Shown: positions 13,260-20,156, counted from the first letter of the stretch. The stretch is DNA of 64,000 bases from Candidatus Binatia bacterium (GCA_041483675.1 JBGPGE010000001.1:868-64867), one strand, 5' to 3'. Numbers and translations are program-made. The notes: generated by a model not told the origin, from the sequence alone.

Positions 13260-15110
13260 TTATAAAGCAGGCAACTCGGCGCGCAGCTGGACCGTCTCTC
13301 CGTCCGGGTAGCTGACGCGCAAGCCGCCGCCGTTTCGTTCGAGCAGAATCTTGGCGAGCAGGACGCGCAGCGGCAGCGCCTCCTCCCCGCCCTGCGCCGC
13401 CGTCAAGCCGAGATAGCGCGTGAGCGAGCTGATGCCGGCGGCCTCGCGGAGATACGAGATCACCACGGCGCCGCCGTTTTCCACTTTGACCTGGATCGAA
13501 TTTTTCGATTTCGCCTGGCTCAGGATCGCCAGAAATAGATTTTTGAAAGCAAAGAGAAAATGGGCTTTGTCGGCGAGGACCGCCATCGTCCGCCCCCGCT
13601 TGCCCCACTCGACGTTCTTGTCGTCCTTCACGGAATCCGGCAAGAGATCGTCGTGGATCCGGGAGAGCTGCTCGTAGAGATAGATCCGCTCCTTGGCCGG
13701 CTGGTTGAAGCGCGCGAATTCGAGCAGGGCCTCCAGCAGATCGTCCATCCGTTGAACGTCGTTGCTCACCGTCTCCTGGAAGCGGGAGCGGAAAGCGGCG
13801 TCGTCGAACCGGTCGCCGAGCAGTTGGGAGAAGGTCTTGATCGTGACCATCGGATTTTTAAGCTCGTGCGCCAGCTCGGTCATGAACAGGCGGAGGTCCG
13901 GCGGCTCGCCGTTGGCCGTCCGCGCGGCGGCGCTTCCGTTCTGCTGGGTCGCCGAACTGGACGTCTGATTTTCTTCAGCGGGCGGAGTGTCGCGGCGCGC
14001 TTCCGCAGAGGCGCCGGCGGAAATCGGCGCGCGCTCGGAGGTGAATTCAAAGATTAGATCCGGCGCGTCGAGCAGCTCTTTCCTGTGCGTCGCGAAGCTT
14101 CGGGCGACGACCGCCTCCAGCTCATCGAGATTGCCGAACCACAGATAGTTGCGCAGCCGGTCCACCGCCGCGGGAGAAAAAACCGCACGGTTCAAGCCCA
14201 GCCGCGCGCCGCATTCCCCGGCCAGCGCAGCCGCCAGGGCGGCGATATCGGCCTGCCGCTCCCGGAGCGGCTGAAGGCGGAGCACCAGCGCCGCCAGCCG
14301 GTAGTAGAGCGGATCGAGAAACGTCCCGCGGTAAACGCTCTCCAGCAAATCCGCGTGCGCGCTGGAGATGAGTTGGAGAGTTCTTCCCTCAGCCTCGCTC
14401 TCGCCCAAAAAGTCGATGAGGCCCGACTGAGCCGTGAGGCTCATGCGCTCGACACCGTAAAGAAACAAAGTCAACCGCGCCCCCGCCGGGCGTTCTTCGA
14501 CTCGCGCCTTGAGGTAGCCCTTCCCGATCTCCGGCGCATGGATAAACAGCGGCGTGCCGGCCTCCGAATTCAGCCGGTGGATCGCCCGCGCCACCCGCTC
14601 CTGCCCGCAGCCGGCCTCGCCGAGGATCAGCAGCGGAAACGGCGCCGCGGCGAACTTCTTGACCAGCGTCGCGACGGACTCTGGCACGTAGGGATACTCA
14701 AGACGAGAAAGGTCCGCGGCGCACGCGGGGACGACCGTCGACGGTTTCGCCGGCTGAGCGGCGGCTTGCGCCAATAGCCGCGCCACTTTTTCTCTCAGCT
14801 CGTAGGGATTGAACGGCTTGGCCAGGAGGTCGACATGCTTCGCGCCGGGATCGAACGGCGCGGTGGGCCGGGAGTCCGCCAGGAACAGCACGGGACAGGA
14901 GAACCGCGCGGCGACACGCGCGAGCGCCGCCGGCTCGGAGGCGGCCGTGCCGCCGACCGCCAGAATCATCAGGTCGATCTCCGTGCCGGAAATACCGGCG
15001 CTTCCGCTCTCCAGCGAGGCGCCGTGCGAGACCGCAAAATCGGGCCCGAGAATGAGCGCGACGGTCTCTCGCACGGCGGCGGACGGATCAATGACTCGAA
15101 TACGCTTCAT
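13260..15110 (-). CDS. Atypical signalling protein: REC-like domain, degenerate sigma-54-activator-like AAA domain and HK-like DHp/CA domains
   Basis: 616 aa. N-terminal receiver-like segment with KPF. The Walker-A-like GEAGCGQE is degenerate and GAFTGA is absent. An H-box-like HELKNPMVTIKTF is followed by a poorly conserved CA region. The gene overlaps the upstream HK gene by 23 nt. Confidence 0.65.
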   Translation of the reverse strand: MKRIRVIDPSAAVRETVALILGPDFAVSHGASLESGSAGISGTEIDLMILAVGGTAASEPAALARVAARFSCPVLFLADSRPTAPFDPGAKHVDLLAKPFNPYELREKVARLLAQAAAQPAKPSTVVPACAADLSRLEYPYVPESVATLVKKFAAAPFPLLILGEAGCGQERVARAIHRLNSEAGTPLFIHAPEIGKGYLKARVEERPAGARLTLFLYGVERMSLTAQSGLIDFLGESEAEGRTLQLISSAHADLLESVYRGTFLDPLYYRLAALVLRLQPLRERQADIAALAAALAGECGARLGLNRAVFSPAAVDRLRNYLWFGNLDELEAVVARSFATHRKELLDAPDLIFEFTSERAPISAGASAEARRDTPPAEENQTSSSATQQNGSAAARTANGEPPDLRLFMTELAHELKNPMVTIKTFSQLLGDRFDDAAFRSRFQETVSNDVQRMDDLLEALLEFARFNQPAKERIYLYEQLSRIHDDLLPDSVKDDKNVEWGKRGRTMAVLADKAHFLFAFKNLFLAILSQAKSKNSIQVKVENGGAVVISYLREAAGISSLTRYLGLTAAQGGEEALPLRVLLAKILLERNGGGLRVSYPDGETVQLRAELPAL

Positions 15111-18857: not shown

Positions 18858-20156
18858 ATGAGCATGAAGAGAGGCTTTCAGTTAGGATTTTTCGTGATTT
18901 TGGGGCTCGTTGCGGACTTGAACGGCGGCCCGCCGGCCTTCGGCGGCGGCTACGCGGTGCCACCGCAAACCGCCAAGGCGGCCAGTCTGGCCAACGCCGT
19001 AACCGCCGGCGTGGACGATCCCTCCGCCGTTTACGCCAACCCGGCCGCCTTGAGCGTCATCGACGGCAACCAGGCGATGGGGGGAGTGACCTATATCAAC
19101 ACGCTGAGCAGCGTCGGCAACGGCGGGCGCACATCTTCCAATCAGCACGAGCACGACCTGATTCCAACGCTGTTTGCCAACTACCACATTCCCAAGACCG
19201 ACCTGACGCTCGGTCTCGGCGCCTACGCTCCCTTCGGCCTGGCGACCACTTACGACCGCGACGCCTTTACCCGCTTTGCCGCCATCCGCTCAAAATTGAC
19301 AACCATGTTCATCACGCCCTCCATCGCCTGGAAACCTTCTCCCTATTTCTCGATCGGCGGCGGCGTGAGTTTCGTCCGCTCCTACGCCTATCTGTCGCGC
19401 GCCGTTTTCCTCGGGGTCGGCGAAGGGACGCTCAGGATCACCGACAAGGACGACGCCTACGGCTACAATTTCGGTATCCTGGTCAGGCCGCACGACGCCG
19501 TAAAGCTGGGCCTGACGTATAGAAGCCGGGTCGATCTCAAGTTTGATACGGCCGACACGAAGTTCCAGGACGCGCCGATCGCCGGCGGCGCGGTGTCGCG
19601 CGTACGCGCGACCGGGATTCACATCCCACTGCCGCCGGTCGTCAGCGCCGGGGTTCACTGGCAGATCAACGACGCGTGGGGCGTTGAACTGGTTTACGAC
19701 TTTACCCGCTGGAGCGAATTCGAGCGGCTGAAGGCGAACTTTGAAACGCCGTTGCCGGCGCTCGGCGGGTTCGTGCCGATCTCCGGCTTCACAATTCCCG
19801 AGAACTGGAAAGATACCAGCACGATCCGCTTCGGCGCGTCCTTCAAGGCGACGCAAAATCTCTCCTTGAGAGGCGGTTTTGCGTTGGATCAGACTCCGAT
19901 CCCCGACAGCACATCAAGCCCGTCAATTCCCGGCGCGGACTTCTTAACCGTCACCGGCGGAATCGGTTACAACTGGGGAAATCTGGGAGTTGACGTGGGC
20001 TATATGGCGGTTTTTTATAAGACGAGAAACGTAACCAACAACGTGCTCGAGACCGGAGGCAGCCCGGGCGCCCTACCTGCTCCTGGCCTTTCAGGCCGCG
20101 ACAAGTACGAGACCTTCCAGAATCTGGTCTCTATGCATCTGCGCTATCGCTTCTAA
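18858..20156 (+). CDS. FadL/TodX/OmpP1-family outer-membrane hydrophobic-compound transporter
   Basis: Signal peptide, beta-strand-rich sequence and a C-terminal RYRF aromatic terminus. N-terminal conserved region resembles FadL. It is divergent from the HTH-KAS operon. Confidence 0.7.
   Translation: MSMKRGFQLGFFVILGLVADLNGGPPAFGGGYAVPPQTAKAASLANAVTAGVDDPSAVYANPAALSVIDGNQAMGGVTYINTLSSVGNGGRTSSNQHEHDLIPTLFANYHIPKTDLTLGLGAYAPFGLATTYDRDAFTRFAAIRSKLTTMFITPSIAWKPSPYFSIGGGVSFVRSYAYLSRAVFLGVGEGTLRITDKDDAYGYNFGILVRPHDAVKLGLTYRSRVDLKFDTADTKFQDAPIAGGAVSRVRATGIHIPLPPVVSAGVHWQINDAWGVELVYDFTRWSEFERLKANFETPLPALGGFVPISGFTIPENWKDTSTIRFGASFKATQNLSLRGGFALDQTPIPDSTSSPSIPGADFLTVTGGIGYNWGNLGVDVGYMAVFYKTRNVTNNVLETGGSPGALPAPGLSGRDKYETFQNLVSMHLRYRF

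Follow-up and report, generated by a model that had tools for sequence, protein, structure and literature searches.

In Vibrio and Xanthomonas, the gene for a fatty-acyl signal synthase adjoins that for a multi-helix sensor kinase, namely CqsA/CqsS with cholera autoinducer 1 (CAI-1) and RpfF/RpfC with diffusible signal factor (DSF), respectively. The Vibrio relay ends at the sigma-54 activator LuxO, and the Xanthomonas output is RpfG, which joins a receiver (REC) domain to an HD-GYP domain. In Ralstonia, phcB and phcS share one operon, and in the DesK/DesR-des system of Bacillus subtilis a membrane kinase without an extracellular domain is encoded beside the gene for a lipid-modifying enzyme that is under its control. 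Here we describe a locus in a stretch of 64,000 nucleotides from Candidatus Binatia bacterium (GCA_041483675.1 JBGPGE010000001.1:868-64867; the whole stretch is called the window below), in which a FabF-like beta-ketoacyl synthase (KAS) is encoded directly upstream of a sensor kinase with a seven-transmembrane (7TM) domain of the HisKA_7TM family. Among relatives of this locus, enzyme and 7TM domain are swapped as a unit, whereas the GAF domain, the kinase core and the regulators vary independently of the enzyme type. We found no literature describing this cassette.

Two groups of described systems are particularly relevant. The Ralstonia methyltransferase PhcB makes a fatty-acid-derived methyl ester (methyl 3-hydroxymyristate or 3-hydroxypalmitate) that is sensed by the membrane kinase PhcS (PMC8578825). 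In comQXPA and agr loci, the enzyme and the membrane domain of the sensor are hypervariable, and the cytoplasmic kinase domain and the regulator are conserved (PMC4008528; PMC4408185). The locus in the window resembles comQXPA of B. subtilis and agrBDCA of staphylococci in that the enzyme gene lies directly upstream of the gene for a kinase with a polytopic sensor (8-10 helices in those systems). It also has the hallmark of a pherotype locus, since its variable block consists of the enzyme gene plus the N-terminal membrane sensor of the kinase, and the kinase core and regulator are conserved. A change of enzyme and membrane sensor in step, with kinase and regulator left constant, is what marks the comQXPA and agr pherotype loci. 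However, no peptide precursor gene is evident here, and the enzymes act on acyl lipids (KAS II, LuxD-like and ICMT-like). The cassette also differs in having a sigma-54 activator, in occurring in diderm hosts and in including a FadL-type channel.

The genes and control elements of the locus are as follows.

18858-20156, plus strand: FadL/TodX (Toluene_X) outer-membrane channel, 432 aa (PF03349, 218.6 bits)
18769-18857, between the strands: divergent control region shared by the HTH and FadL genes, 89 bp
18574-18768, minus strand: HTH_17 protein, 64 aa (PF12728, 61 bits; TIGR01764, 54.8 bits)
17257-18543, minus strand: FabF-like KAS of type A, 428 aa, with N- and C-terminal ketoacyl-synt domains
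15088-17241, minus strand: HisKA_7TM-GAF-HisKA-HATPase_c sensor kinase, 717 aa, with HisKA_7TM at residues 9-222
16576-17241, minus strand: variable sensor module of this kinase (residues 1-222), the seven membrane helices of type A
15088-16575, minus strand: conserved part of this kinase, with two more membrane helices, GAF, the dimerization and histidine phosphotransfer (DHp) domain (H-box AHEIRNP) and the ATP-binding domain
13260-15110, minus strand: pseudo-enhancer-binding protein (pseudo-EBP) with a DHp domain (Sigma54-like plus HisKA), 616 aa
11837-13243, minus strand: NtrC-type sigma-54 activator (REC, AAA+ and HTH_8), 468 aa
11639-11654, minus strand: sigma-54 promoter TGGCAT-N5-TTGCT (TGGCATGTGAGTTGCT), preceding the REC-HK operon
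10480-11592, minus strand: REC-HisKA-HATPase histidine kinase (REC-HK), first gene of a second-tier operon, 370 aa
9766-10470, minus strand: conserved protein without a known domain, second-tier operon, 234 aa
9358-9732, minus strand: single-domain receiver, second-tier operon, 124 aa

The genes on the minus strand are tightly packed, with gaps of 30 nt between the HTH and KAS genes, 15 nt between the KAS and kinase genes and 16 nt between the pseudo-EBP and NtrC-type genes, and with a 23-nt overlap of the kinase and pseudo-EBP genes. The second-tier operon (9358-11592) follows after 244 nt. The FadL gene runs in the opposite direction to the HTH-KAS-kinase operon and starts 89 bp from the HTH gene. 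Beyond it lie glnS (20432-22129, minus strand) and then gltX (22346-23767). An arginine-rich open reading frame (ORF) of 664 aa (20165-22159, plus strand) was rejected as a gene, as it is an antisense shadow of glnS. Rfam and tRNA scans of the window gave no matches. The initial annotation of this DNA had proposed a cassette of an HTH protein, a KAS, a 7TM-GAF kinase, a REC/EBP/HK protein, a sigma-54 activator and a divergent FadL, and this gene and domain content agrees with our ORF listing and domain scans. Its observation that the KAS stands apart from other fab genes also holds, as no acyl carrier protein (ACP), second KAS or other fab gene was found in the 64-kb window.

The kinase scores 62.6 bits on PF16927 (HisKA_7TM; cut-off 28.6), and the match is followed by GAF, HisKA and HATPase_c domains. 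Hydropathy gives about nine hydrophobic segments, and from the short loops between them the kinase is predicted to have no extracytoplasmic domain. No ligand for the HisKA_7TM domain was reported in the literature that we searched. We also considered whether the kinase and regulator belong to PrsK/PrsR, the pair associated with PEP-CTERM/exosortase, and rejected this assignment; the kinase scores 159.4 on TIGR02916 (cut-off 300) and the regulator 395 on TIGR02915 (cut-off 502.6).

The main evidence comes from comparing relatives of this locus, all of which are metagenomic contigs of uncultured bacteria (labeled L001 and upward here). In domain-wise identity matrices, residues 5-222 of the kinase cluster by the content of the enzyme slot, i.e., the position occupied by the KAS in the window, whereas the remainder of the kinase does not. 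Among 16 Binatia loci, the 7TM domains are 61.6% identical when the enzyme type is shared and 24.2% identical when it differs (p~1e-4, 10,000 permutations). The corresponding values are 56.8 and 56.2 for the GAF domain (p 0.32) and 72.7 and 73.2 for the kinase core (p 0.51). The window's type of 7TM domain is 54-88% identical within type A and 18-36% identical to other types, with cores identical up to 96-99%. The contrast is clearest in two comparisons.

L006 (KAS-A) versus L025: kinase core 96% identical, GAF 83%, membrane region (residues 5-290) 34%
L100 (LuxD type) versus L013 and L017 (KAS-B): kinase core 98-99% identical, GAF 60-83%, 7TM domain (residues 5-222) 22-27%

At the level of DNA, L006 and L025 are 93% identical over 5.5 kb starting from about kinase residue 223, which is the end of the Pfam 7TM domain; their FadL genes are 68% and their HTH genes 75% identical, and their KAS and 7TM regions have no similarity. 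Between L100 and L017, gltX and glnS are 90% identical, FadL and HTH 79%, and the sequence downstream 94-97%, with no similarity in the enzyme and 7TM regions. The breakpoints of these mosaics lie at about kinase residue 209-223, and FadL and HTH are intermediate, at 68-79% identity versus 88-97% in the flanks. Assembly chimeras may affect single breakpoints, but they cannot explain a consistent pairing of enzyme and sensor across samples and assemblers. The three LuxD-type loci have 7TM domains that are 55-64% identical, in line with a prediction made before two of them (L099 and L100) were looked at. If the sensor detects the lipid that the enzyme makes, joint exchange of the enzyme and the 7TM domain is what one would expect.

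Further loci bear on this pairing. In L101 (JGI 3300031952, 295-17260), which belongs to a distant lineage, there are two HisKA_7TM kinases, one of them directly after a START-LuxD-methyltransferase fusion. The 7TM domain following this fusion is 39-44% identical to the Binatia 7TM domains of LuxD type, and the kinase cores are 27-28% identical. Tandem HisKA_7TM-GAF kinases occur in L015 (11246-15549) and L016 (11249-15540) after radical-SAM, ICMT-like and KAS genes, and the two 7TM domains of the L016 tandem are only 48% identical to each other. Five loci (L026, L028, L031, L032 and L036) have the pseudo-EBP/NtrC/REC-HK chassis with a kinase whose sensor is of TM-HAMP/periplasmic type rather than 7TM; in L026 the genes before that of the kinase encode a phosphonate-type periplasmic binding protein, a PEP-utilising-like protein and an MFS transporter. 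On the contigs recovered for these HAMP-sensor loci, there was no match to a KAS or FadL. As far as these contigs reach, the enzyme swap is specific to the chassis with a 7TM sensor.

The enzyme slot of Binatia loci has the following variants.

KAS-A, the type in the window
KAS-B, with or without an ICMT-like gene
an ICMT-like gene and KAS-C (L023), KAS-C being 39% identical to the window KAS
a fusion of 580-582 aa joining a LuxD-like acyl transferase (PF02273, 109 bits) to a SAM methyltransferase (L020, L099 and L100)
proteins without a known domain (L025 and L027)

For the slot proteins of L025 (489 aa), L027 (138 aa) and L018 (324 aa), no similarity to Pfam, NCBIfam, PDB or KAS profiles was detected.

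In all 12 relatives of type A (L001-L012), the gene order is constant wherever the contig reaches: gltX, glnS, divergent FadL, HTH where present, KAS, kinase, pseudo-EBP, NtrC-type regulator, REC-HK and the protein without a known domain. The closest genome (95%) is 'Deltaproteobacteria bacterium RIFCSPLOWO2_12_FULL_60_19'. Thus, the cassette is a conserved unit, as had been supposed. However, gltX and glnS are conserved as well, so synteny within Binatia is on its own no proof of a functional link. Other loci include the following.

L013, L014 and L017, Binatia-like: the same cassette; in L014 and L017, HTH and KAS are separated by the gene for an ICMT/PEMT-like membrane methyltransferase
L015, Candidatus Schekmanbacteria: B12 radical-SAM, ICMT-like, KAS, two HisKA_7TM-GAF kinases, pseudo-EBP and NtrC-type regulator
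L016, lineage unknown: the L015 order, continued by a sigma-54 promoter and by genes for REC-HD and a homologue of the 234-aa protein
L018, lineage unknown: FadL, a small HTH-like ORF, KAS, a 324-aa unknown protein, 7TM kinase and pseudo-EBP, all on a single strand
L045, outside Binatia synteny: KAS, 7TM kinase, pseudo-EBP and NtrC-type regulator
L047: KAS, FadL, B12 radical-SAM, ICMT-like, an OleD/HpnA-like short-chain dehydrogenase/reductase (SDR), 7TM kinase, pseudo-EBP, NtrC-type regulator, a REC-domain gene (REC-HD) and a partial match to the 234-aa protein

The combination of a KAS, a HisKA_7TM-GAF kinase, a pseudo-EBP and an NtrC-type regulator thus recurs in L015, L016, L018, L045 and L047. 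Because L045 and L047 were found in a metagenome scan anchored on the pseudo-EBP, they are unbiased with regard to the KAS. The functional tie between the KAS and the 7TM kinase that the initial annotation had proposed is therefore upheld by a pairing that recurs in at least three lineages outside Binatia synteny, in addition to the joint exchange on a near-identical chassis.

We next consider the enzyme itself. The window KAS is a two-domain condensing enzyme of the thiolase fold (PF00109, 180 bits; PF02801, 101 bits) without membrane segments by hydropathy. It resembles FabF in fold and in its pair of domains, and in an alignment to E. coli FabF, whose numbering is used here, the Cys-His-His triad (C163, H303 and H340), K335 and the gating residue F400 are all intact, with which tblastn is consistent. 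Its best matches among solved structures are the Thermus and Bacillus FabFs (370 bits), and its identity to bona fide FabFs is about 40-45%. It differs from FabF in scoring below the cut-off of the fabF equivalog model TIGR03150 (476.1 versus 493.75 bits), in its altered anchor residues, in having no fab or acpP neighbor, in its place in a signaling operon and in belonging to a separate clade. It does clear the subfamily model NF005589 (456.4, cut-off 387).

In E. coli FabF, T270, S271, T305 and T307 anchor the phosphopantetheine arm, and the T270A mutant retains 0.6% of wild-type transacylation (bioRxiv 10.1101/2021.02.13.431092). R206 touches the ACP (PMC7138838). The window KAS retains S271 and carries T270M, T305I, T307I and R206Q, such that three of the four anchoring side chains are hydrophobic (M270, I305 and I307). 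As judged from these residues, the changes are predicted to alter contacts to both phosphopantetheine and ACP. The four changes are shared by most of 120 orthologues, among which the motifs HG[ILV]A[IVL]P and DAYHVM.F prevail, whereas nearly all neighboring representatives with an intact triad have T or S at positions 305 and 307.

The window KAS has relatives at 65-97% identity in more than 120 protein clusters; wherever a source is named, it is Candidatus Binatia. In a comparison with 1.84 billion representatives, the family of the window type forms one cluster at 50% identity (642 bits). The next single-domain relative, P0124, reaches only 446 bits and heads a sister family in the same cassette. 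In a neighbor-joining tree with 500 bootstraps, the KASs of types A and B and the Schekmanbacteria type form a clade apart from canonical FabF-like representatives (90% support), and those of L018 and L047 group separately, with P0127. About 1 Mb of sequence from the relatives' loci contained no additional fabF or acpP.

Compared with the fatty-acyl systems introduced above, the locus shows both likenesses and differences. As in phcBSRQ of Ralstonia, a methyl ester could be the product in some relatives: the LuxD-methyltransferase fusion, or a KAS together with an OleD-like SDR and an ICMT-like enzyme, could plausibly yield 3-oxo or 3-hydroxy acyl methyl esters. The occurrence of the fusion, of an ICMT-like O-methyltransferase and of an OleD-like reductase by the KAS hints at such an ester in released form, and these variant cassettes (the fusion, or ICMT-like plus SDR) suggest a released, methylated fatty-acyl product. 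However, the cassette in the window has no methyltransferase, its proteins are unrelated in sequence to PhcB and PhcS, the output runs through NtrC/sigma-54 and not PhcA, and we infer the chemistry. The path from an NtrC-type regulator to a sigma-54 promoter recalls Vibrio, and the REC-HD gene that comes next in L016 and L047 recalls Xanthomonas. The synthase here is a KAS II, in contrast to the PLP-dependent CqsA and the crotonase RpfF, the kinase is not a hybrid, and there is no histidine phosphotransfer (Hpt) protein, with the pseudo-EBP/DHp protein present instead.

This pseudo-EBP combines a receiver without its acceptor Asp, an AAA+ domain that is predicted to be ATPase-dead and an intact DHp His-box, which is an undescribed architecture. 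The GAFTGA segment is deleted, and the Walker A motif reads GEAGCGQE, and every orthologue has Q or R in place of the K. Where HTH_8 would be expected, there are a DHp domain and a degenerate ATP-binding domain. The DHp motif, ELAHELKNP, keeps its His in 8 of 8 aligned orthologues, the pattern ELAHE[LIF]KNP being invariant, and the domain closely resembles the DHp of the neighboring kinase. Orthologues occur in Binatia, Schekmanbacteria and the lineages of L018, L045 and L047. From these features, the protein may act on the same regulator as the kinase, as a phosphatase, a phospho-sink or a heterodimer partner.

The NtrC-type regulator has the expected domains (Response_reg, 100 bits; Sigma54_activat, 235 bits; HTH_8, 48.6 bits) with the motifs GESGTGKE and GAFTNA, and is 68-95% identical across Binatia loci. 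On the LuxO model it scores 356 bits versus a cut-off of 800. Matches to the sigma-54 consensus with at most one mismatch number 8 in the window, where 2.5 are expected. The promoter at 11639-11654 is a perfect match and is kept in all relatives that cover the region, in agreement with the earlier proposal of a sigma-54 promoter before the REC-HK operon. An equivalent promoter precedes the REC-HD gene of L016. A palindrome, ACAAAnTTGT, was considered as an upstream activator site, being conserved before the sigma-54 promoter in most relatives, but it is absent from the window and was rejected.

The 234-aa protein of the second tier (9766-10470, minus strand) has no Pfam or NCBIfam match and carries an N-terminal CxxC...HH motif. 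Its gene always comes after the sigma-54-driven REC-HK gene. A homologue with 29% identity follows the REC-HD gene of L016, and there is a partial match downstream of the REC-domain gene of L047.

The divergent control region contains, on the minus strand, a -35 element CTTGAC (18834-18839), a TATAT box (about 18810-18815) and a ribosome-binding site (RBS; 18774-18779). Direct repeats with a spacing of 10-11 bp are present at 18782-18787 (TGCCAT) and 18792-18797 (TGCCAA), with a degenerate copy at about 18801-18807. In the plus direction, the best candidate for a FadL promoter is TTGGCA(18792)-16-TACAAT(18819), which overlaps the TGCCA repeats. Across 8 aligned loci, CTTGAC, TATATA and three TGCCA(A/T) copies before the RBS are conserved. 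The initial annotation had suggested two palindromes, TTGTACAA and GTTAAC, as operators. Both are present and neither is conserved in this alignment; TTGTACAA corresponds to repeat 1 in degenerate form, at about 18801-18807, and GTTAAC sits in a spacer that is not conserved. A candidate sigma-54 promoter in this region, TGGCAGCATTTGGCA, was also rejected, since its GG-GC spacing is one base short and it is not among the matches with at most one mismatch.

The HTH_17 gene is present in 8 of 13 type-A loci and is lost or degenerate in 5. It is gone from L003, L009, L010 and L012, and its ORF is disrupted in L011; given these losses, it is dispensable. Only loci that have the HTH gene, or what is left of it, carry the TGCCA repeats. 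They are missing from the four loci without the gene, and L011 retains both promoter and repeats. The protein matches PF12728 at 61 bits, and it scores 20.6 on the BldC model (cut-off 77). Given the co-occurrence of its gene with the three repeats, this excisionase/BldC-like protein is probably their binder, and because the repeats overlap the candidate FadL promoter, one regulator could control both directions. In the four loci without the gene, which form a Binatia subclade, a sigma-54 promoter (GGGCAT-N5-TTGCG) lies about 60-100 nt upstream of the KAS gene, which points to autoregulation by the operon's own activator. In L018, an unrelated small HTH-like ORF occupies the same position.

The channel has a signal peptide and the NPA hatch motif (YANPAAL). 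It clears the PF03349 cut-off of 29.7 and does not reach the equivalog of E. coli FadL, NF007988 (101 versus 585). A FadL gene is present in every Binatia locus whose contig extends upstream of the enzyme slot, and in the non-Binatia loci L018 and L047 it is on the same strand, within the operon in L047. Among L001-L027, there are two FadL sequence classes, about 62% and about 50% identical to the window FadL. The recurrence of FadL, including that in the L047 operon, fits passage of a hydrophobic compound through the outer membrane. According to one paper, channels of this type are able to carry long-chain acyl signals (PMC9938287).

We therefore propose that the window holds the type A allele of a modular, lipid-linked sigma-54 phosphorelay, which might work as follows. 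The FabF-like KAS would make or extend a particular acyl chain, and its product, or a lipid derived from it, would enter the inner membrane and be recognized within the bilayer by the seven-helix HisKA_7TM domain. The kinase would then set the phosphorylation state of the NtrC-type regulator, on which the pseudo-EBP would also act in one of the roles given above; we infer both the ligand and the direction of regulation. The phosphorylated regulator would fire the promoter at 11639-11654 and so induce the second tier (REC-HK, the 234-aa protein and the receiver), and in relatives without the HTH gene it would probably drive the KAS operon too. HTH_17 probably binds the three TGCCA repeats and thereby controls the operon and fadL, and FadL would pass a hydrophobic compound through the outer membrane. 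That the 7TM domain senses the lipid product of the adjacent enzyme, which is the core of this proposal, has in our judgment about an even chance of being correct.

A further-reaching version would have Binatia and at least two other uncultured lineages communicate by lipids in distinct pherotypes, with KAS-A, KAS-B, KAS-C or the LuxD-methyltransferase fusion as synthase in modules that include a matching 7TM receptor and recombine on a constant chassis, FadL carrying the pheromone and the signal possibly being shared between cells. We are doubtful about this version and offer it only tentatively. It corresponds to the earlier suggestion of production, transport and perception of a fatty-acyl signal, of which the tie between enzyme and 7TM sensor stood, and we found no evidence to favor a diffusible signal over a privately sensed membrane lipid. 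If correct, this would be the first polymorphic lipid-pheromone system, with the first class of ligand for HisKA_7TM. Sensing of the lipid product would in itself give a function to this uncharacterised domain and to a distinct FabF-like clade that is annotated as beta-ketoacyl-ACP synthase II. Diversification of synthases and receptors in the manner of pherotypes would reach lipid chemistry, beyond Gram-positive peptides, in a widespread uncultured soil phylum. The natural module swaps on a near-identical chassis are a ready design for specificity experiments, and possibly for orthogonal lipid-responsive two-component switches.

It is important to emphasize that several observations weigh against a lipid product being sensed by the 7TM domain. 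The slot in the window contains a KAS alone, with no thioesterase, ACP, release or tailoring gene, and such a KAS by itself would give an ordinary 3-oxoacyl-ACP. KASs of type A are 65-95% identical, near the level of glnS, which is atypical for a determinant of specificity. L025 and L027 have 7TM domains of type B and yet no KAS, but rather the 489-aa protein and the 138-aa ORF. The enzyme types are our own definition, drawn from about 40 informative metagenomic loci. FadL recurs with the cassette, but its class follows neither the enzyme type nor the 7TM type. Finally, the L101 cluster also contains genes for a radical-SAM protein, a PlsC-type acyltransferase, a PilZ-methyltransferase, a monogalactosyldiacylglycerol (MGDG) synthase, a lipid A acyltransferase, single receivers and a GAF-HD protein, and this setting amid membrane-lipid synthesis genes suits lipid homeostasis equally well.

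Homeostasis of membrane lipids would mean that the 7TM domain responds, like DesK, to the physical state of the bilayer (its thickness or fluidity, for example), and that the KAS, ICMT-like and radical-SAM enzymes remodel lipids under the system's control. Lipid modification is indeed within the reach of KAS II, of lipid methyltransferases and of B12 radical-SAM enzymes, two HisKA_7TM kinases lie amid the MGDG synthase and acyltransferases of L101, the KAS is strongly conserved, and loci without HTH have a sigma-54 promoter before the KAS gene. However, a sensor of a bulk state needs no joint replacement with its effector on a chassis that is 98-99% identical, and the LuxD-like/SAM methyltransferase fusion would release a methylated acyl compound, not make a lipid of the bilayer. 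FadL lies within the L047 operon, and the outputs are regulators (REC-HK and REC-HD) instead of lipid genes. DesK itself senses bilayer thickness, its regulator is not sigma-54 dependent, and we know of no swapping of enzyme-specific sensor modules for it. We regard this explanation as unlikely. The co-variation might also arise from contact, with the enzyme docking on the kinase and thereby signaling its own catalytic flux, as in BceAB-BceS. Adjacent interacting proteins would likewise be expected to be co-inherited, and the 15-nt spacing of the KAS and kinase genes suggests translational coupling. Yet the part that co-varies is the membrane 7TM domain with its short loops, while the cytoplasmic GAF domain and core do not track the enzyme; the KAS has no membrane segments, and the LuxD-methyltransferase fusion consists of soluble-enzyme domains only. 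Docking is therefore quite unlikely in our view.

The remaining explanations make the KAS part of ordinary metabolism. Exogenous fatty acids or hydrocarbons could be imported by FadL, sensed by the 7TM kinase and processed for incorporation by the KAS or other enzymes. FadL does recur with the cassette, and Binatota are predicted, in one study, to degrade alkanes and fatty acids (PMC8262859). However, the cassette has no FadD, acyl-ACP synthetase or beta-oxidation genes, a biosynthetic condensing enzyme with methyltransferases is odd for catabolism, and the independence of FadL type from enzyme and sensor type, noted above, counts against this idea too; we give it a small chance. Lastly, the KAS might serve Binatia as housekeeping FabF and have no relation to the two-component operon next to it. 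Its intact catalytic residues, its identity to bona fide FabFs with the Thermus and Bacillus enzymes as best structures, its passing of the NF005589 cut-off and the neighboring glnS and gltX would all be compatible with this, whereas its score below the fabF equivalog cut-off, the T270M, T305I and T307I changes at three of four phosphopantetheine anchors and the sigma-54 promoter in loci without HTH would not. Moreover, in close relatives the slot contains a KAS of another type (39-55% identical) or none (L099, L100 and L025), between flanks that are 90-97% identical, and the same KAS clade is found with the same kinase family in another phylum. Because close relatives swap or drop the KAS in this slot, and because its clade accompanies the kinase in another phylum, a housekeeping FabF is very unlikely.

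Elsewhere in the window, a flagellar filament cluster (30816-36969, minus strand) encodes two flagellins, two FliS, FliD, a FliT-like protein, a CheY-like receiver and MotA. Sigma-54-like sites with one mismatch precede the flagellin and CheY-like genes (32987-33002 and 33602-33617). The initial annotation had linked this operon to the cassette, but the sites are about 14 kb away and outside the conserved synteny, so we did not retain the link. A probable flagellin-glycosylation or nonulosonic-acid island follows (37255-61282, minus strand), with genes for NeuB, a CMP-sugar cytidylyltransferase, several methyltransferases, two asparagine synthase-like proteins, an FkbH-like protein, an N-acetyltransferase-like protein and epimerase/dehydratases. 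At 24000-28000, the GC content dips to 0.56-0.58, and a barstar-like immunity protein (25632-25916) is encoded beside an AAA_15/AAA_21 ATPase (24816-25598); this region may be a small toxin-immunity or defence islet. Further sensor kinases are REC-3xGAF-HisKA-HATPase (2280-5018, plus strand) and HDOD-HD-GAF-HisKA-HATPase (61980-63995, minus strand), and the window is unusually rich in signaling proteins.

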